This document shows positions 2,877 through 13,289 of a stretch of 64,000 bases of DNA, in pieces. This DNA comes from Escherichia coli. Its GTDB lineage: Bacteria > Pseudomonadota > Gammaproteobacteria > Enterobacterales > Enterobacteriaceae. The stretch is from assembly GCF_965641715.1 (NCBI RefSeq), contig NZ_OZ282455.1; one strand, given 5' to 3'. Both the position numbers and the translations under genes were made by a program. The notes below the pieces were generated by a model. It had not been told where the DNA came from and searched no databases. It saw only the letters and a list, made by a program, of their open reading frames with translations. The stretch's first letter is position 1. Each line of letters starts with the position of its first letter.

Positions 2877-3592
2877 GCGCACGTTCACGGGCACTGATCC
2901 CCCTCAGCGCAGAGCAACAGGCCGCCATGCAGGCTGTGGCTGTCACCGAACAACGTCGTCGTCAGGGACGCACACTTTCAGCATGGCCTTATGCCAGCGC
3001 TTTCTTTCGCTGCCTGAATGGCAGTCGCCGGATTTCGCTGACCGATCTCCGCTTTTTTGCTCCTGCGCTGACGAAGGAGGAATTTCATGGCAACCGTCTC
3101 CTGTGGCTGGCTGCCGTGGATAAACTGATTGAAAGTTTTGGTGAAGTCTGTGTTCTTCCCCTGCCATCCGATGCGGGGCATCGTCTGTTCCCGTCCGTTC
3201 CTTTTCGTGAAGGTGAGCGGCGTCGTCAGAAAACCACGCTGACAGAGCAGAAATACAGCCGCCAGCGGGAACGTGAGGCAGAACGACGGGAACTGGAATA
3301 CCAGACATGTTTTGCTCAGGCGCAGATTGACCTTGCGTTTCATACTCCCGCCACGGTCGGAAGCTGGTTGTCCCGCTGGTCTGGTGTTGTTGAGGAGCAT
3401 GATCTGGAAACGATTTTCTGGGGGTGGTGCGGGCGTTTTCCATCACTGTCATCATTTGACCGGTTTTTCTGGCAGGAGGAACCACTCTGGCGGCTGATTT
3501 TTGAAGCCGGTGAGGCCGGTCGTGGTGCACCGGTACAGGTACGTGCACTTGAGCAGTGGATGATCCCGAACAAGCTGGAGAACGCAATATGA
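2873..3592 (+). CDS. psiA: plasmid SOS inhibition protein PsiA
   Basis: 239-aa ORF immediately after psiB with ATGA overlap; size and position as in F/IncI psiB-psiA operon. Confidence 0.8.
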
Positions 3593-5496: not shown

Positions 5497-5860
5497 CCCC
5501 TGTCGCGCCGGAAACGGCGCTCCCTGCACACCTGACGGTGTGTAAGGCCACTGCGCCTGATGGCGCAGTCAACCCTTCCGCCGCCACCCCTGCGGCCTGT
5601 TTCCCGCTGTGGACTTTCCGGGGGCTGGAGTAACCACATCCCGTTTCAGCAGTCTAGGGGAAGATATACCGTCCACAAAATTTTTAGCCATAAACCCGGC
5701 AAAAAATTTTGCGTCCGCCCCCGGACAGCTGCCCCGTGACGTGGTGACGGACGCCCCATCGGAAAGGTCCACTGCGGGGAGAAACCCCGAAGAAGTGGAC
5801 GGCAGAAGGGGCTTTCGCCCCTCCGGGGAGCAACCGGTCGGCCCGGCGACCTGATTCAGC
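5497..5860 (+). repeat. Frpo-like structured repeat, copy 1 (candidate ssDNA promoter)
   Basis: About 360 bp highly similar to 8372-8725; contains inverted repeats CACACC..GGTGTG and CTGCGCC..GGCGCAG; sits directly upstream of an ORF start. Confidence 0.6.
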
Positions 5861-5876: not shown

Positions 5877-6311
5877 ATGACAGTCAGCAGCACGATTTCC
5901 GTTTTTTGCCGCGACGGGGTGTTCCGTACCGTTTACTGCCACCTGCACGGGGAGCCGACCTGGAACGGTCGCATCCTGCATACCCACTATGCCACCGGTC
6001 AGCAGGCCGAAGCCCTGGTTGAACACGGTGATATCCGTTGCCTCGGTCCCCGTTGCGACAAACCCGCCGGGCATACGCTTCAGAACCCGGTGGACGGTGT
6101 GACGGCTTATTACGGACGTGACAGTGGTTTCCGGATGGACAGTGAGGCGCGTGAGTACCGTTCTTTCAGGGAGGCTATTGCCACTGAAAGCACTGAAGAG
6201 GTGCGCTTCCATTATGTGTTCATCGACGGCTACTGGAAGGTGATGTACCGCACGCCGGAAGGCTGGAAGATGAAAGCGCTCGCGCTGGCACTGCGTCGCT
6301 GTCCGAAATGA
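5877..6311 (+). CDS. hypothetical protein (144 aa) downstream of Frpo-like repeat 1
   Basis: Clean ORF with GGAGA RBS; no family recognised. Confidence 0.6.
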   Translation: MTVSSTISVFCRDGVFRTVYCHLHGEPTWNGRILHTHYATGQQAEALVEHGDIRCLGPRCDKPAGHTLQNPVDGVTAYYGRDSGFRMDSEAREYRSFREAIATESTEEVRFHYVFIDGYWKVMYRTPEGWKMKALALALRRCPK

Positions 6312-6735: not shown

Positions 6736-7662
6736 GTGAGTAAGAAGAAAACCACCACGACGCCCACGCCGCATGATGCCGCGTTCCGGTCGTTCCTGGC
6801 GAATCCCGACGTCGCCAGAGATTTTCTGGAACTGCATCTTCCGGCGGAGTACCGGCAGTTGTGCGACCTGTCCACGCTGAAGCTGGAACCCGCCACCTTT
6901 GTTGAGCCGGACCTGCATCAGTACGCCAGCGATATCCTCTGGAGTGTGAAAACCACCGGGGGTGAAGATGGCTATGTTTATACGCTCATCGAGCACCAGA
7001 GCACCGAAAATCTGTACATGCCTTTCCGCATGTTACGTTACAGTGTGGCGGCGATGCAGAGACATCTGGAGCAGCACAAAACGTTGCCACTGGTCATTCC
7101 GGTGCTGTTCTATCACGGTGAGCGCAGCCCGTACCCGTACAGCATGAACTGGCTGGACTGTTTTGAGAATCCGGCGCTTGCGGCTAAAATATACACAAAG
7201 CCGTTTCCGCTGGTTGATATCACTGTCGTTGATGACAATGAAATCATGAACCATCGCCGGATGGCCGCACTGACGCTGCTGATGAAGCATATCCGCCATC
7301 GTGACATGATGGAGCTGCTGGACAAACTCCCGCAGGTCATGGTGGAAATTTCAGACGAGCAGGTGCGTGTTCTGATTCATTACATCGTTAACGCAGGGGA
7401 CTCTGTATCACCGGAATTTATGCGGGCGCTGGCTGAGCGTCTGCCGCAGCATGAGGATAAACTGATGACTATCGCAGAACGTCTTGAGCAAAAAGGTCGC
7501 CAGGAAGGCAGGATGGAAGGACGCATGGAAGGACGCATGGAAGGAGCGCTTGAAAAAGCCCTGGCTATTGCGTGCCAGCTTCAGAAAATGGGGATGACGC
7601 CGGAGCAGATTAAGCAGGCTACCGGACTTTCCGATGACGAACTGAAGAAAATCACTCACTGA
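6736..7662 (+). CDS. Rpn-family (YhgA-like, PD-(D/E)XK transposase_31) recombination-promoting nuclease
   Basis: HDAAFRSFL...LIEHQS...PLVIPVLFYHGE motif block typical of Rpn/YhgA-like proteins; GTG start after AGGAGG chosen; C-terminal tail carries GRMEG tandem repeat. Confidence 0.75.
   Translation: MSKKKTTTTPTPHDAAFRSFLANPDVARDFLELHLPAEYRQLCDLSTLKLEPATFVEPDLHQYASDILWSVKTTGGEDGYVYTLIEHQSTENLYMPFRMLRYSVAAMQRHLEQHKTLPLVIPVLFYHGERSPYPYSMNWLDCFENPALAAKIYTKPFPLVDITVVDDNEIMNHRRMAALTLLMKHIRHRDMMELLDKLPQVMVEISDEQVRVLIHYIVNAGDSVSPEFMRALAERLPQHEDKLMTIAERLEQKGRQEGRMEGRMEGRMEGALEKALAIACQLQKMGMTPEQIKQATGLSDDELKKITH
7495..7547 (+). repeat. 15-bp tandem repeat inside rpn encoding GRQEG-RMEG-RMEG-RMEG
   Basis: ggacgcatggaagga repeated in tandem; seen directly. 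Confidence 0.8.
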
Positions 7663-7671
7663 GTAAACATC

Positions 7672-7702
7672 ACAGCCCGGCAAAATGCCGGGCTTTTTTG
7701 TC
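7672..7702 (+). terminator. rho-independent terminator after rpn
   Basis: AGCCCGGC-AAAAT-GCCGGGCT hairpin followed by TTTTTTG. Confidence 0.75.
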
Positions 7703-7723
7703 AGCAGGAGCAGAGCAAACAGC

Positions 7724-7882
7724 ATGACGATTGCAGAACGTCTTATTCAAAAAGGCGCACTTGAAGTGGCGCGGGAAATAGCCTGCCGGCTGCGGGATAT
7801 GGGCTGGACGCCGGAACGGATTCAGGAGGCAACCGGACTTTCCGGTGAAGAACTGAAAAAGCTGTTTCCTGATGAGCAGTAG
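7724..7882 (+). CDS. standalone RpnS-like small protein (paralogue of the Rpn C-terminal tail)
   Basis: 52-aa product MTIAERLIQKG...TPERIQEATGLSGEELKK aligns with Rpn residues from the internal Met (MTIAERLEQKG...TPEQIKQATGLSDDELKK); DNA also visibly similar. Confidence 0.5.
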   Translation: MTIAERLIQKGALEVAREIACRLRDMGWTPERIQEATGLSGEELKKLFPDEQ

Positions 7883-7912
7883 CCTGGCATTCAGCCAGGC
7901 TGTGAATCACGC

Positions 7913-8164
7913 TCACACATCCTCTGCCGTTTCCCCCAGTTCATTTTCCAGTCGCCTGATGATATCTGCCTTACGCATCCCCTGCATGTGAGGCAGCAGG
8001 TCACGGACTGAAAGTGCCTGGGTGGTCCTCCAGACGGTGACGTCCACCTGTTCCGCATTTTCCCAGGCGTGCCATGTTCTCTGCGTCACGCCAAATTCTC
8101 TGGCCGCTTTTTCGCGTGACCAGAGCATGCTTTTTCGCCAGATTCGCAGTTCCCAGCCGGTCAT
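7913..8164 (-). CDS. XRE-type helix-turn-helix transcriptional regulator
   Basis: 83-aa ORF with WSREKAAREFGVTQRTWHAWEN helix-turn-helix-like segment; one of only two leading-region protein genes on the minus strand. Confidence 0.55.
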   Translation of the reverse strand: MTGWELRIWRKSMLWSREKAAREFGVTQRTWHAWENAEQVDVTVWRTTQALSVRDLLPHMQGMRKADIIRRLENELGETAEDV

Positions 8165-8179
8165 AAAACACCTTTAAAA

Positions 8180-8266
8180 AAGTGAAAAAACTTCACTTTA
8201 TTTTATCATCATAATCACCAAATTAACGCGATAAATAAGTGTGAAAAAGTGAAGAAATTTCACTTT
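8180..8266. promoter_or_regulatory. two palindromic operator-like sites (AGTGAA-N4/5-TTCACT) in the promoter region of the HTH gene
   Basis: Perfect inverted repeats at about 8181-8198 and 8248-8264 in an AT-rich region immediately upstream of the minus-strand HTH gene. Confidence 0.5.
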
Positions 8267-8371
8267 TTTTGCTTGTAAATGTCGTGCGGTTTTCTCTGTT
8301 TTCACCTGTGCGGGAGTGGTGTGCCAGTGACCACCACATGCCATTGTTGTGCCGTCGTTTTTCTTCAGTCG

Positions 8372-8725
8372 CGCCGTATGCGGCGCTCCCTGCACACCTT
8401 ACGGTGTGTAAGGCCACTGCGCCTGATGGCGCAGCTGTCTCTGCCTGTCTGCCGCCGCACTGCGGCCTGTTCTCCGCAGACGGACTTTCCGGGGGTACAT
8501 ACATGACCACATCCCGTTTCAGTCGTCCAGGGGAGAGATGTACCAGCCACAAAACTTTTTGCCGCAGGCGTCAAAAACTTTTGCGTCTGCCCCCGGACAA
8601 CTGCCCCGTGACGTGGTGAGCGTCCCCCGTCGGAAAGGTCCACTGCGGGGAAATCCCCGAAGACCCGGACGGCAGAAGGAGCTTCGCTCCTCCGGGAAAT
8701 GACCTGGCTGACCCGGCAGTCGTGA
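8372..8725 (+). repeat. Frpo-like structured repeat, copy 2 (candidate ssDNA promoter)
   Basis: Paralogous to 5497-5860 including the GCGCTCCCTGCACACCT.ACGGTGTGTAAGGCCACTGCGCCTGATGGCGCAG core; ends just before an ORF start. Confidence 0.6.
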
Positions 8726-8740
8726 CGATGAGGAGACAAT

Positions 8741-9592
8741 GTGATGAATCAGACTTTACCCACTGCTGACCTGAATACTGCCGGCACGACAGATGTTATT
8801 CCGTCTGTGGCTATCGACCGCATCATCGCGCAGCGTAACGAAGGTATTGCACTGTTCATGCAGGCGATGGAATGCCTGGCGACAGCGCGCAAGATTCTGC
8901 TCGATGCGTCAGGTGATATTTTTCTTTACGGGTTTGAAGACTGCGTGACTGATTCCGTTCGTCGCATAGATAAACCGGAAGAAGCGAAAAGGAATATCAC
9001 CCGTCTTGCCGACCGGAAAATCTGGGATCGCCTGATGACAGATACGGGCATGTACACCTTCATGAGTTCATGCCAGCGTGATGAGTGGAACAGCCAGCTG
9101 ATGAGCGACACCTGTCCTGAAATCACCCTGGACAATGTACTGGCAACATTCCGCCATCTGAATGCCTGCAAGATGCAGACATTTGAACAGGGACTGATTG
9201 ATGTCTACCGGAAATTGTCATGGGATTACAGAACCAATAATCCCTGCCGTCTGGGTAAGAAAATCATTATTGAAAACCTGCTGTACCGCTGGAGTAACGG
9301 GCGTGTGACGCTGGACTGCAGCGGACGGGAGGCACTGGATGACCTGGTACGTCCGTTTTATCTGCTGGAGGGGCGCAACGTTCCTGACTTCAGGAACAGT
9401 ATCGGGGCGCAGTATGGTGAATTTCTCGGGAACGGCGACAATGTCGGTAAGCTGTTAGAAGGGGAATATTTTACGGTGCGTGGCTACCAGAAAGGGACCG
9501 TACACATTGTCTTTAAGCGTTCTGACCTTGTTGAAAAACTGAATGATATTATTGCACGGCATTATCCAGGTGCATTGCCGCCACGAGTCTGA
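8741..9592 (+). CDS. hypothetical protein (283 aa) downstream of Frpo-like repeat 2
   Basis: ORF with GAGGAG RBS; no family confidently recognised. Confidence 0.6.
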   Translation: MMNQTLPTADLNTAGTTDVIPSVAIDRIIAQRNEGIALFMQAMECLATARKILLDASGDIFLYGFEDCVTDSVRRIDKPEEAKRNITRLADRKIWDRLMTDTGMYTFMSSCQRDEWNSQLMSDTCPEITLDNVLATFRHLNACKMQTFEQGLIDVYRKLSWDYRTNNPCRLGKKIIIENLLYRWSNGRVTLDCSGREALDDLVRPFYLLEGRNVPDFRNSIGAQYGEFLGNGDNVGKLLEGEYFTVRGYQKGTVHIVFKRSDLVEKLNDIIARHYPGALPPRV

Positions 9593-9677: not shown

Positions 9678-10019
9678 TCAATTGTTGTTCATATCGATGC
9701 CATCTTTCCTGCCTGAATCTGTCTTTTTAGGTGCTGTTTTAGAGGAAGAACGGCGGGATGGTTTTTTCGATTCTGCTTCCCGAATAATGTCACGAAGTGC
9801 CTTCTCTCCTACTTCATACCCTGCATTTTTGAGCGTGTCACGAACATCTGCCAGTGTATAACCCTTTGTCCTTACCAGGACAATAATGTCATCACGAATG
9901 GCATCAAGAAAATCACGCAATGTTTTCCGTTGAGCGGTGAGATCTGGCAATTCCGATAAAGCAGCTTTTGCCAGCTGGATGTCATCATCTGAGTAAAATT
10001 TTTTAGAAGCCATTGGCAC
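9678..10019 (-). CDS. hypothetical protein with basic Ser/Lys-rich C-terminal tail
   Basis: 113-aa ORF from the six-frame track, divergent from nikA across oriT; no family recognised. Confidence 0.45.
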   Translation of the reverse strand: MPMASKKFYSDDDIQLAKAALSELPDLTAQRKTLRDFLDAIRDDIIVLVRTKGYTLADVRDTLKNAGYEVGEKALRDIIREAESKKPSRRSSSKTAPKKTDSGRKDGIDMNNN

Positions 10020-10149: not shown

Positions 10150-10246
10150 CGGGACAGGATGTGCAATTGTAATACCGTCACACGCGACGCTATTACAATT
10201 GCCATCTGGTCAGGGCTTCGCCCCGACACCCCGTAAGGAGCCTGAA
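10150..10246. other. oriT: origin of transfer (oriT) region
   Basis: Imperfect inverted repeat AATTGTAATACCGTCACACGCGACGCTATTACAATTG immediately upstream of nikA; position and sequence consistent with my recollection of R64 oriT; nick site not resolved. Confidence 0.6.
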
Positions 10247-10579
10247 GTGAGTGATAGTGCGGTAAGAAAGAAAAGTGAGGTACGGCAAAAGACAGTTGTC
10301 AGGACACTCAGATTCTCTCCTGTTGAGGATGAAACCATCAGGAAAAAAGCTGAAGATTCCGGACTTACTGTATCTGCTTACATCCGAAATGCAGCACTGA
10401 ATAAGCGAATTAACTCCCGTACAGATGATGCTTTTCTGAAGGAGTTAATGAGACTGGGAAGGATGCAGAAGCATCTGTTTGTTCAGGGAAAAAGAACCGG
10501 TGACAAGGAATACGCAGAAGTGCTTGTTGCCATAACCGAACTTACAAATACATTGCGTAAACAGTTAATGGAAGGTTGA
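10247..10579 (+). CDS. nikA: relaxosome accessory protein NikA (110 aa)
   Basis: GTG start after AAGGAG gives 110 aa (VSDSAVRKKSEVRQKTVVRTLRFSPVEDE...), the size I recall for R64 NikA; directly upstream of the relaxase. Confidence 0.8.
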   Translation: MSDSAVRKKSEVRQKTVVRTLRFSPVEDETIRKKAEDSGLTVSAYIRNAALNKRINSRTDDAFLKELMRLGRMQKHLFVQGKRTGDKEYAEVLVAITELTNTLRKQLMEG

Positions 10580-10589
10580 GGATTCTCCG

Positions 10590-13289
10590 GTGAATGCAGT
10601 CATTCCAAAAAAGAGAAGGGACGGCAAGTCTTCGTTCGAAGACCTGGTATCCTACGTCTCTGTCCGGGATGACATGACCGATGAGGAACTGGATTTATCT
10701 TCTTCTTCGCAGGCTGAACAACCGCACCGAAGCCGTTTCAGTCGCCTTGTTGATTATGCGACACGTCTTCGAAATGAGTCATTCGTGGCGCTGGTTGATG
10801 TCATGAAGGACGGCTGCGAATGGGTCAACTTTTATGGTGTCACCTGCTTTCATAACTGTACTTCTCTTGAAACTGCCGCTGCAGATATGGAGTACATTGC
10901 CCGGCAGGCACACTATGCAAAAGATGACACTGATCCTGTTTTTCACTACATTCTTTCCTGGCAGTCACATGAAAGCCCGCGTCCGGAACAGATTTATGAC
11001 AGTGTACGTCATACGCTGAAATCACTCGGCCTTGCCGACCATCAGTATGTCTCTGCCGTGCATACTGATACAGATAATCTGCACGTCCATGTGGCTGTTA
11101 ACCGGGTACACCCTGAAACGGGTTATCTGAACCGGTTATCCTGGAGTCAGGAAAAACTCAGTCGTGCCTGCCGTGAGCTTGAACTGAAGCATGGTTTTGC
11201 TCCGGATAACGGTTGCTGGGTCCATGCACCGGGAAATCGTATCGTTCGCAAAACCGCCGTTGAACGTGATCGCCAGAACGCGTGGACACGCGGGAAAAAA
11301 CAAACTTTTCGCGAGTATGTCGCGCAGACAGCGGTCGCTGGTTTACGCAGTGAACCTGTAAATGACTGGTTATCCCTGCATCGTCGTCTTGCGGAAGATG
11401 GTCTGTACCTGTCTCAGATGGACGGAAAATTTCTGGTGATGGATGGCTGGGATCGCAACAGGGAAGGTGTACAGCTTGACTCGTTTGGTCCCTCCTGGTG
11501 TGCAGAAAAACTCATGAAAAAAATGGGTGACTACACGCCAGTACCAAAAGACATTTTCAGCCAGGTGGAAGCACCAGGACGCTATAATCCGCACTTCATT
11601 GCCGCTGATGTTCGCCCGGAAAAAATCGCTGAAACAGAAAGTCTGCAGCAGTATGCCTGTCGTCATCTTGGAGAACGTCTGCCGGAAATGGCACGGGAAG
11701 GACGGCTGGAAAACTGCCAAGCTATTCACCGCACACTGGCTGAAGCGGGATTATGGATGCGTGTTCAGCATGGTCACCTGGTTATCTGTGACGGTTATGA
11801 TCATAACCAGACTCCCGTTCGTGCTGACAGCGTATGGTCGCTGCTGACGCTCGACAATGTGAATCAACTCGATGGTGGCTGGCAGCCTGTACCAACAGAT
11901 ATTTTCCGCCAGGTTACGCCAACAGAACGCTTCCGTGGTCGTCGTATGGAGAGCTGTCCTGCGACCGATAAAGAATGGCACCGTATGCGTACAGGCACGG
12001 GGCCGCAGGGGGCTATCAAACGCGAACTGTTTTCTGACAAAGAAAGTCTGTGGGGATACAGCATCAGCCATTGTAGCCCTCAGATTGAAGAAATGATCAC
12101 ACAGGGTGAGTTTACCTGGCAGCGTTGTCATGAGCTGTTTGCACAACAGGGACTGATGCTACAGAAACAACATCACGGGCTTGTTGTCGTTGATGCCTTT
12201 AATCATGAGCAAACGCCGGTGAAGGCCAGCAGCATTCATCCTGATCTGACACTGGGGCGTGCAGAGCCACAGGCCGGACCTTTTGTGAGTGCCCCAGCAG
12301 ATTTGTTTGACAGGGTGCAACCTGAAAGTCGCTATAACCCGGAGCTGGCTGTCAGTGACAGGTACGGGGTCAGCAGTAAACGTGACCCAATGCTGCGCCG
12401 GCAGCGACGTAAAGCCAGAGCTGAGGCCCGTGCTGACCTGCGTGCCCGCTATCTGGCATGGCGTGAACAATGGCGTAAACCAGATCTGCGTTATGGGGAA
12501 CGTTGTCGGGAAATTCATCAGGCATGCCGTCTGCGGAAGTCACACATTCGTGCGCAGTACGATGATCCGGCATTACGTAAGCTGCATTATCACATTGCAG
12601 AAGTTCAGCGAATGCAGGCATTGATCAGGCTGAAAGAAGACATCAGGGATGAGCGACAGAAACTTATTGCTGACGGGAAGTGGTATCCACCCTCTTACCG
12701 TCAGTGGGTCGAAACTCAGGCTGCTCAGGGAGACAGGGCTGCTGTATCGCAGCTGAGAGGCTGGGATTATCGCGATCGCCGTAAAGACAGGTCACGCACA
12801 ACGACGACAGACCGCTGTGTCGTGCTTTGTGAACCGGGCGGAACGCCGGTATACGGTAATACCGGTGATCTCGAGGCCCGTCTGCAGAAGAACGGGAGTG
12901 TTCGTTTCCGTGACCGTCGGACGGGAGAGTTTGTCTGTACGGATTATGGTGACAGGGTTGTTTTCCGTAATCACCATGACCGCAATGCGCTGGCAGATAA
13001 ACTGGATTTGATTGCACCGGTATTATTCGGGCGTGATCCTCGCATGGGTTTTGAACCAGAAGGAAACGACAAACAATTTAACCAGGTCTTTGCTGAAATG
13101 GTTGCCTGGCATAATGTGACAGGCCGTACCGGTCACGAAGACTACAGGATTACGCGACCGGACGTGGATCATCACCGTGAAGGAAGTGAACGCTACTACC
13201 GCGATTATATCGCGGCGAACAGCAACGATGACGCATCACTGCCTCCGCCGGAGCAGGATAAACGCTGGGAACCGCCTTCTCCAGGTTAA
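10590..13289 (+). CDS. nikB: relaxase NikB (MobA/MobL-type, 899 aa)
   Basis: 899-aa ORF with histidine-triad-like motif HTDTDNLHVHVAVNRV; length matches recalled R64 NikB. Confidence 0.85.
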   Translation: MNAVIPKKRRDGKSSFEDLVSYVSVRDDMTDEELDLSSSSQAEQPHRSRFSRLVDYATRLRNESFVALVDVMKDGCEWVNFYGVTCFHNCTSLETAAADMEYIARQAHYAKDDTDPVFHYILSWQSHESPRPEQIYDSVRHTLKSLGLADHQYVSAVHTDTDNLHVHVAVNRVHPETGYLNRLSWSQEKLSRACRELELKHGFAPDNGCWVHAPGNRIVRKTAVERDRQNAWTRGKKQTFREYVAQTAVAGLRSEPVNDWLSLHRRLAEDGLYLSQMDGKFLVMDGWDRNREGVQLDSFGPSWCAEKLMKKMGDYTPVPKDIFSQVEAPGRYNPHFIAADVRPEKIAETESLQQYACRHLGERLPEMAREGRLENCQAIHRTLAEAGLWMRVQHGHLVICDGYDHNQTPVRADSVWSLLTLDNVNQLDGGWQPVPTDIFRQVTPTERFRGRRMESCPATDKEWHRMRTGTGPQGAIKRELFSDKESLWGYSISHCSPQIEEMITQGEFTWQRCHELFAQQGLMLQKQHHGLVVVDAFNHEQTPVKASSIHPDLTLGRAEPQAGPFVSAPADLFDRVQPESRYNPELAVSDRYGVSSKRDPMLRRQRRKARAEARADLRARYLAWREQWRKPDLRYGERCREIHQACRLRKSHIRAQYDDPALRKLHYHIAEVQRMQALIRLKEDIRDERQKLIADGKWYPPSYRQWVETQAAQGDRAAVSQLRGWDYRDRRKDRSRTTTTDRCVVLCEPGGTPVYGNTGDLEARLQKNGSVRFRDRRTGEFVCTDYGDRVVFRNHHDRNALADKLDLIAPVLFGRDPRMGFEPEGNDKQFNQVFAEMVAWHNVTGRTGHEDYRITRPDVDHHREGSERYYRDYIAANSNDDASLPPPEQDKRWEPPSPG

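Follow-up and report, generated by a model that had tools for sequence, protein, structure and literature searches.

Aca2 (DUF1870; PDB 7ezy, 7vjo) is a small dimeric helix-turn-helix (HTH) protein that represses its own promoter via inverted repeats and is found among early anti-defence genes (bioRxiv 10.64898/2026.07.27.740549). The restriction-modification (R-M) controller (C) proteins, such as C.AhdI, also belong to the small XRE HTH proteins; two palindromic sites precede the gene of each, giving timing control after entry into a naive host, and they control a downstream endonuclease gene. HipB and HigA2, both XRE antitoxins, repress their own expression from several palindromic operators. 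In the leading or establishment region of the IncN/IncW plasmids pKM101 and R388, the repressors ArdK/ArdR reportedly act on several double-stranded anti-restriction and ssb promoters (CUP promoters), giving a burst of expression that is followed by repression; Delver and Belogurov in 1997 and Fernandez-Lopez and colleagues in 2014 are said to have described this ArdK/ArdR-CUP arrangement and the negative-feedback 'overshoot' control of establishment genes. Here, we analysed ygeA, a gene for an XRE-type HTH protein in 64,000 nucleotides of Escherichia coli DNA (contig NZ_OZ282455.1; this whole stretch is hereafter called the window). The window comprises the leading and transfer region of an IncI-gamma/K1 (IncI1-like) conjugative plasmid. 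Two palindromes lie before ygeA, a proximal one (O1) and a distal one (O2), and it is likely that ygeA encodes a small dimeric XRE-type HTH repressor of which O1 and O2 are the predicted operators.

By the membership criteria of each class, YgeA is outside the Aca2, C-protein and type II antitoxin classes. When the predicted YgeA structure was compared with the PDB using Foldseek, HipB, Aca2, HigA2, SinR, CapH and C.AhdI ranked first, with no E-value below 0.1 for this short chain. Of the proteins with solved structures, Aca2 (26-30% identity over ~75 columns) was also the closest in sequence, and the two have the N-terminal motif MTxYEL..lRk in common (chain 7ezy_A, residues 1-45, a marginal E=2.6e-4 in a profile search of PDB sequences with YgeA). 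However, no DUF1870 Pfam match was found in YgeA or in any of 40 family members, Aca2 is longer (~120 versus 83 amino acids), and ygeA is monocistronic and stands alone on the strand opposite to its neighbours, with no co-oriented neighbour gene, rather than following an acr gene within an operon. If transcription of ygeA starts inside O1 as predicted, its 5' untranslated region (5'UTR) would be missing the left arm and thus the hairpin, and a counterpart of the Aca2 RNA site would not be expected there. C proteins bind adjacent C-boxes (~35 bp, over the -35), whereas O1 and O2 are 67 bp apart (55-57 bp in relatives) with O1 over the start site, and no endonuclease gene is adjacent to ygeA in the window. 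In contrast to the XRE antitoxins, ygeA has no cognate toxin gene in an operon with it, and the toxin-antitoxin (TA) modules near its relatives have operators of their own. ArdK/ArdR differ from YgeA in that the operators of the ygeA plasmid lie only at ygeA's own promoter, and the early genes near ygeA use single-stranded DNA (ssDNA) promoters. By analogy, YgeA would work like any XRE autorepressor with paired operators, in a setting similar to that of the Aca proteins and of the ArdK-type repressors, and with a timing logic that resembles that of the R-M controllers.

Predicted operators and promoter of ygeA

The initial annotation of this locus had described a minus-strand XRE-type HTH gene preceded by two perfect AGTGAA-N4/5-TTCACT palindromes within about 85 bp, and had suggested an autoregulated repressor. 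The gene is there as described, on the minus strand. Its product (WP_000148285.1, annotated 'helix-turn-helix transcriptional regulator'; ygeA is the name in R64-style annotation, pSTM709) matched the Pfam models HTH_31 (E=1.2e-4) and HTH_3 (E=0.022), and 22 and 20 of the 40 family members, respectively, matched these models at E<=1e-3. An AlphaFold2 (AF2) model built from the 40-sequence alignment had a predicted local distance difference test (pLDDT) score of 90.4 and five helices (residues 3-12, 17-24, 28-35, 42-60 and 65-75), with T27-Q28-R29-T30-W31-H32 as the predicted recognition helix. With its Pfam profile match and compact all-helical HTH fold, YgeA falls within the XRE/Cro-C1 superfamily. 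In the alignment, M1, L6, W9 and R10 were invariant and T2, G3, W15, A20, A21, G25 and E35 were at least 90% conserved; YgeA carries the lineage motif MTG(W/Y/F)(E/D)L(R/K)xWR at its N-terminus, W15, and AA at 20-21. It matched phrog_6962 of PHROGs, to which no function is assigned there, with E=1.8e-13, and NCBIfam holds no model for the family, giving only sub-threshold matches to RstR, HipB and MqsA (the latter two far under their cut-offs).

Both perfect palindromes were recovered, with cores AGTGAAAAAACTTCACT at 8181-8197 (O1) and AGTGAAGAAATTTCACT at 8248-8264 (O2), a centre-to-centre distance of 67 bp and a total span of 84 bp; the spacer given as N4/5 did not hold and is N5 in both. 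A palindrome search of the 64 kb with at most one mismatch returned 2 matches, O1 and O2, compared to 0.18 expected from shuffles. With up to three mismatches, neither the window nor the 51 kb that complete pRKI3099a, a 115-kb E. coli plasmid to which bases 7600-8800 are 100% identical, contained a credible further operator copy; the three-mismatch matches were at or near chance, and none retained both the GTG and the CAC core in a promoter context. A plasmid-wide YgeA regulon was therefore rejected. Because both are similar palindromes, O1 and O2 are also mutually complementary (88% over 24 nt, 8176-8199 with 8246-8269); in a single-strand fold of the transferred strand (T-strand), O1 pairs with O2 and the ygeA promoter region is looped out, by which no function is implied.

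Relatives of YgeA down to ~30% identity were then compared, amounting to ~40 loci (numbered with L below) across Enterobacterales and some phages. Thirty-one loci, spread over Enterobacterales, came from a profile scan of GTDB genomes, and eight more from distant representatives; a word-indexed protein search contributed little, all of its hits being relatives above 56% identity, and the distant ones came from the profile search, a related-locus search and tblastn of YgeA against 72,556 PLSDB plasmids. Synteny was assessed by tblastn of marker proteins on the related loci. A palindrome of the same design was centred 22-36 bp before the ATG in ~32 of 42 related loci, and a TAAAAT, TAGAAT or CATAAT hexamer recurred across the family 0-4 nt before the proximal palindrome. 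The consensus of 112 half-sites was A-A-G-T-G-(C>A>T)-A-(A/G)-(T/A), AAGTGCAAT, and homologues at 30-50% identity in other MOBP plasmids had AAGTG(C/A/T)A-N5-T(G/T/A)CACTT. A second palindrome was located 55-67 bp upstream in 16 loci (Buttiauxella has three palindromes) and 0.8-1.1 kb away in five, while ~14 loci had the proximal operator only. Spacings between the two operators were 55-57 and 64-67 bp and differed by 2 bp between close relatives, which spoke against strict helical phasing, and that idea was rejected. The loci with no palindrome were mostly those in which the gene overlaps an upstream open reading frame (ORF) within an operon (pOXA-48/IncL-M, L026, L029, L035 and L043), and L025 had degenerate sites only.

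The half-sites also varied with the predicted recognition helix. The helix TQRTWHAWE (Q28, IncI1) pairs with the half-site AGTGAA, and xLR(T/S)(Y/W)K-x-YE (L28, K32) with AGTGCA; an L28-type helix with R33 pairs with GTGAC in four loci (L030, L034, L036 and L044), SVATYKRYE (R29A) with AGTC(T/G)C in L045, and TRKTYARYE with ATGGGTA in L046. Gln-adenine and Arg-guanine pairings such as these would be chemically sensible. A simple rule by which H32 versus K32 accounts for A versus C in the operator failed at L039, where a TWH helix occurs with AGTGCA sites. In addition, the locus was compared with the variant in L041, whose protein is 84% identical. O2 and the block of -10, O1 and Shine-Dalgarno sequence were 88% and 86% identical, respectively, compared to 40% for the inter-operator spacer and 36% for the region upstream of O2. 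Synonymous sites of the gene were saturated (dS 1.35), and the ratio of non-synonymous to synonymous substitution (dN/dS) was 0.07, and 0.02 in the HTH half. Judged by this substitution pattern, ygeA is a genuine gene under purifying selection. Furthermore, the palindromes follow the gene and vary with its recognition helix, which suggests that YgeA binds a two-fold symmetric operator as a dimer. Taken together, the kept positions of palindrome and -10, the covariation of half-site and helix, the conserved footprint, the lack of any other copy on the plasmid and the purifying selection make strong in-silico evidence for direct, sequence-specific autoregulation, as the initial annotation had proposed.

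A promoter with an extended -10, TGATAAAAT, is predicted immediately before O1 (Table 1), and no good -35 was seen. Transcription would start at ~8193-8194, inside O1 and 6-7 nt past the -10; counted from this start, O1 would extend from about -6 to +13, with the centre of O2 at about -60. After the DNA has become double-stranded, this promoter would fire leftward, and YgeA would accumulate and bind O1, over the transcription start, and O2, ~60 bp upstream, probably cooperatively, with O2 adding cooperativity or looping. A dimer on O1 would exclude RNA polymerase and the promoter would be throttled, giving a burst of expression and then a low steady state. Because O1 and O2 are the plasmid's only strong sites, the predicted circuit would amount to negative feedback of local reach, placed where the leading operon proximal to the origin of transfer (oriT), ssi-DUF4942, borders on the next one, ygcA-ygdA-rpn. 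Candidate further outputs are silencing or insulation of ssi/DUF4942, or interference with the convergent rpn operon. At the other end of the gene, a GC-rich hairpin may mark the end of the transcript; it has no T-run and was not called by a terminator scan.

Table 1. Features of the ygeA locus and its surroundings (positions in the window)
Feature	Position	Strand	Description
ygeA coding sequence	7913-8164	-	83 aa, ATG start; XRE-type HTH; from the ORF list
O1, proximal operator (predicted), AAGTGAAAAAACTTCACTT	8180-8198		AAGTGAA-N5-TTCACTT, perfect 7-bp arms; centre 25 bp before ATG
O2, distal operator (predicted), AAGTGAAGAAATTTCACTT	8247-8265		AAGTGAA-N5-TTCACTT; arms extend to 10 bp (8244-8268)
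ygeA -10, TAAAAT (inferred)	8205 to 8200	-	Extended -10 TG at 8208-8207; whole element TGATAAAAT, 8208 to 8200
Shine-Dalgarno-like AAAGGTG	8169-8175	-	4 nt before ATG; kept in the window, L041, L007 and L004
GC-rich hairpin, 8 bp, AGCCTGGC-ATTCA-GCCAGGCT	7885-7905		Just past the ygeA stop codon; read from the sequence
Frpo/ssi-like single-strand promoter element	8290-8740	+	Precedes the DUF4942 gene; context
DUF4942 gene (R64 ydiA)	8741-9592	+	oriT-proximal leading gene, divergent from ygeA; Pfam PF13708
yggA	9678-10019	-	MobC-like; homologous to Orf35 of pCTX-M3
nikA and nikB	10199-13289	+	

A promoter that has no -35 might need help, and O2 is centred near -60, which would suit a switch of the kind formed by C proteins, in which O2 is activating and O1 repressing; YgeA would stimulate its promoter while scarce and close it once abundant, so that entry would be followed by a delayed, bistable switch. 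The small size of YgeA, the presence of C.AhdI among its structural neighbours and the methyltransferase-related genes nearby (the DUF4942 gene here, and an N6 methyltransferase gene convergent with the homologue in L005) are in line with such a switch. We nevertheless regard it as very unlikely: the operators are 55-67 bp apart and do not form an adjacent ~35-bp C-box, O2 is missing from many relatives, no restriction endonuclease gene is under ygeA control here, and an extended -10 can function unactivated. It is extremely improbable that the palindromes have nothing to do with YgeA and are instead bound by a host factor, form a terminator or are AT-rich hairpins that arose incidentally. They are AT-rich and can pair with each other on single-stranded DNA, and GTGA...TCAC loosely resembles CRP or GalR-type half-sites. 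However, the arrangement here is GTGA-N7-TCAC rather than the N6 of CRP, the central CG of LacI-family sites is missing, and neither palindrome has a T-run in the terminator sense; moreover, the motif is absent from the rest of the plasmid, tracks the gene across unrelated backbones and phages, and varies with the recognition helix.

Several points weigh against autorepression by YgeA from O1 and O2. The covariation between helix and half-site rests on few independent changes and is not clean at half-site position 6, where L041 mixes A and T with L28 and L039 departs from the pattern as described above. The ygeA promoter was not called by a consensus promoter scan, its -35 being weak, and was deduced from sequence and conservation. 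A literature search found no binding or expression experiment on YgeA and no paper on its function. Transposon-directed insertion-site sequencing (TraDIS) of a related I-complex plasmid, which may not carry ygeA, found no conjugation repressor in the leading region (PMC10286972); the gene order suggests that genes 930/940/950 of that paper occupy the far end of the leading region instead of adjoining ygeA. Finally, it is not obvious what selective advantage a purely self-controlling regulator would bring, and part of the function of YgeA is therefore missing from the model.

Strand placement and the neighbouring early genes

Because nikA and nikB lie on the plus strand from 10199, oriT was placed between 10020 and 10200. 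The genes ssb, psiB, psiA, ardA, ygcA, ygdA and rpn, a parB-like gene and the DUF4942 gene share the plus-strand orientation, pointing toward oriT. During conjugation, the T-strand enters the recipient 5' first from oriT and templates the genes that point toward oriT (PMC11541004, PMC12672017); since the leading genes on the plus strand do so, the T-strand is the minus strand. Only two genes of the leading stretch, yggA and ygeA, are on the minus strand. As ygeA has the same sense as the T-strand, its transcription must therefore wait for the second strand to be made in the recipient. By gene orientations and established conjugation knowledge, ygeA is thus expressible only after complementary-strand synthesis, which agrees with the initial annotation, where the regulator was placed on the strand unreadable from the incoming single strand. 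The same would hold for yggA: deletion of its homologue Orf35 in pCTX-M3 raised nikA, nikB and traH transcripts 23- to 80-fold (PMC6112013), and by analogy yggA is probably a repressor of the relaxase operon that is likewise expressed only from double-stranded DNA.

The Frpo-like repeat that had been described to the right of the operators was also borne out. The segments 8368-8434 and 8569-8628 repeat 5502-5568 (94%) and 5697-5756 (87%), respectively, and at 8160-8745 the T-strand (minus strand) forms a much more stable fold than shuffled sequences do (z = -8.8). Class 1 ssDNA promoters have been described for IncI1 plasmids (PMC12672017). The DUF4942 gene that follows encodes a product whose PHROG matches are DNA methyltransferase families.

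The initial annotation had further proposed that the regulator could shut down the adjacent early-expressed genes once the plasmid is double-stranded, and this part was not upheld. Under that proposal, YgeA at O1 and O2 would also silence or insulate the oriT-proximal unit (ssi and the DUF4942 gene), like ArdK or Aca proteins. The arrangement has some appeal, since ygeA is always divergent from a leading operon driven by ssDNA promoters, overexpression of leading genes is costly (PMC10286972), and O2 lies ~25-35 bp from the start of the Frpo-like element as read from the sequence, the measured repeat homology starting near 8368. In five loci, O2 is kept on the ssi side even though TA modules set it 0.8-1.1 kb from the ygeA promoter, and L028 retains O2 amid otherwise unrelated flanks. 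However, no operator with up to three mismatches was found at the second Frpo-like copy or in the psiBA, ardA and ygcA promoter regions, ~14 relatives have O1 only, and the distance from the ssDNA-promoter motif GAGCCGAAGG to the nearest operator varies from ~21 to 77 nt, by which a fixed operator-to-motif distance was rejected. A weak plus-strand promoter match, GTGAAA-16-TATCAT at 8182-8209, overlaps O1, would read through O2, and is also present in L041; yet it is at chance level, its conservation arises because it overlies the reverse complement of the leftward extended -10, and it is missing in L005-type loci. From O2 to the DUF4942 gene, a consensus scan of the plus strand gave no convincing sigma-70 promoter. 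In addition, ED-TA RNA-seq indicates that ssDNA promoters fade as the DNA turns double-stranded, with no repressor invoked (PMC12672017), and the TraDIS result given above points the same way. Silencing of the early unit by YgeA is on balance unlikely. A still broader proposal, which we consider quite improbable, is that the YgeA family forms a general 'double-strand sensor' layer that appears after complementary-strand synthesis and, from O1 and O2, either locks off the oriT-proximal early unit of anti-defence or methyltransferase genes in the established plasmid or shields this unit and oriT from read-through, the module being reused in phages between terS and terL, or that YgeA from a resident plasmid binds the O1:O2 hairpin on incoming ssDNA and hinders the establishment of related plasmids. 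Autorepression through O1 and O2 remains the reading that we prefer.

Other features of the neighbourhood were also noted. A small ORF after rpn (7685-7882, plus strand) duplicates the C-terminal HTH_Rpn_C part of the Rpn nuclease, with 7752-7860 being 75% identical to 7541-7649 in the C-terminal part of rpn; its product might be a free-standing Rpn C-terminal domain, and its family is a large leading-region family, family 20 ('RpnE', position 3) of Samuel et al. (Nature 2024). The gene ygcA (5877-6311, plus strand) comes after the second Frpo-like copy and, matched by gene order alone, appears to correspond to gene '810' of pMS7163B, overexpression of which leads to a severe growth defect (PMC10286972). 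Over the operators and the start of the Frpo-like element, RefSeq places a 65-amino-acid 'hypothetical protein' (WP_024246589.1, 8198-8395, minus strand), and R64-style annotation puts 'ygfA' on the plus strand over the same area; both look like spurious ORFs in regulatory DNA.

The YgeA family in other plasmids and phages

YgeA was found in 3,699 PLSDB plasmids, 1,675 of them with less than 60% identity, and the 7600-8800 stretch itself is present in more than 2,000 PLSDB plasmids. In at least 17 loci, the ygeA-type gene lies 0.5-3.9 kb from a yggA/MobC-like gene that adjoins nikA/mobA and a MOBP relaxase gene, on the same strand as the yggA/MobC-like gene. In these loci, it is always opposite to the leading genes (DUF932, DUF5983, DUF4942, N6 methyltransferase, psiA/psiB, parB-like, ssb and ardA); the oriT-proximal leading operon diverges from it, and the next one runs toward it. 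In their survey, Samuel et al. (Nature 2024) catalogued a family 22, the 22nd largest leading-region gene family, with 2,333 members, a median position of 2 from oriT, strand -1 and the label 'HTH transcriptional regulator; aca6', although the aca6 HMM was matched by only 3 of the 2,333 members. Their RpnE-like and RpnB families stand at positions 3 and 4, an order that matches the window. YgeA is almost certainly a member of family 22 (representative WP_151333485.1), matched by position, strand and neighbours and not by sequence. Its placement on the strand of delayed expression is unusual yet was already recorded by Samuel et al., who catalogued the family without proposing an operator, promoter or function. 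YgeA belongs to a lineage of its own (phrog_6962, family 22).

Homologues were also present in two different phage genera, in Erwinia phage PEp14 (L048, 2501-2722) and Klebsiella phage SopranoGao (L049, 2001-2219), in each case on the opposite strand between terS and terL; in SopranoGao, two GTG(A/C)A-N5-T(T/G)CAC palindromes bracket a TATAAT. The pOXA-48-type (IncL/M) locus L003 (6001-6829) and L043 (1501-2807) have homologues inside plus-sense operons, with no palindrome. There, the homologue precedes a gene with an Mrr_cat/'restriction endonuclease' domain, directly in pOXA-48 and one gene away in L043, and such relatives represent a different use of the same HTH. As a guide to the ygeA locus, the pOXA-48/IncL-M homologue (31% identity), being within an operon and without a palindrome, was uninformative. 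In L004 (E. fergusonii p150_40A, an IncI plasmid; 3001-3233), ygeA is frameshifted and both operators are intact; the DUF4942 and rpn genes of this locus also look disrupted.

Remote operators at -835 to -1112 bp were considered as sites of other promoters, and this was rejected, as the distal operator had been displaced by TA cassettes. Different cassettes are located exactly between the distal operator and the ygeA-type promoter in L012 (3184-3930), L016, L031, L033 and L028, on Yersinia, Rahnella and Enterobacter plasmids, and the cassettes own separate operators, for example TTCGTACTCAGTACGAA twice. The distal operator and an adjacent GC-rich hairpin were kept even with unrelated flanks. 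This looks like either an insertion hotspot or a distal operator with a role of its own.

Meaning for resistance plasmids and leading regions

IncI-complex and related MOBP plasmids are major carriers of extended-spectrum beta-lactamase (ESBL) and other resistance genes, and the YgeA family, widespread as it is, had no described function, operator or promoter. The analysis supplies a predicted operator, AAGTGCAAT-N-ATTGCACTT (AAGTGAA-N5-TTCACTT in IncI1), a promoter model, and residues 28, 29 and 33 as predicted determinants of specificity. YgeA is an uncharacterised new member of a familiar class of regulators, and its interest comes from its spread in resistance plasmids. If YgeA regulates only itself, it would be an ordinary autoregulated XRE gene; if its control reaches further, leading regions that otherwise use self-extinguishing ssDNA promoters would have in YgeA their first known protein-based 'late' control.

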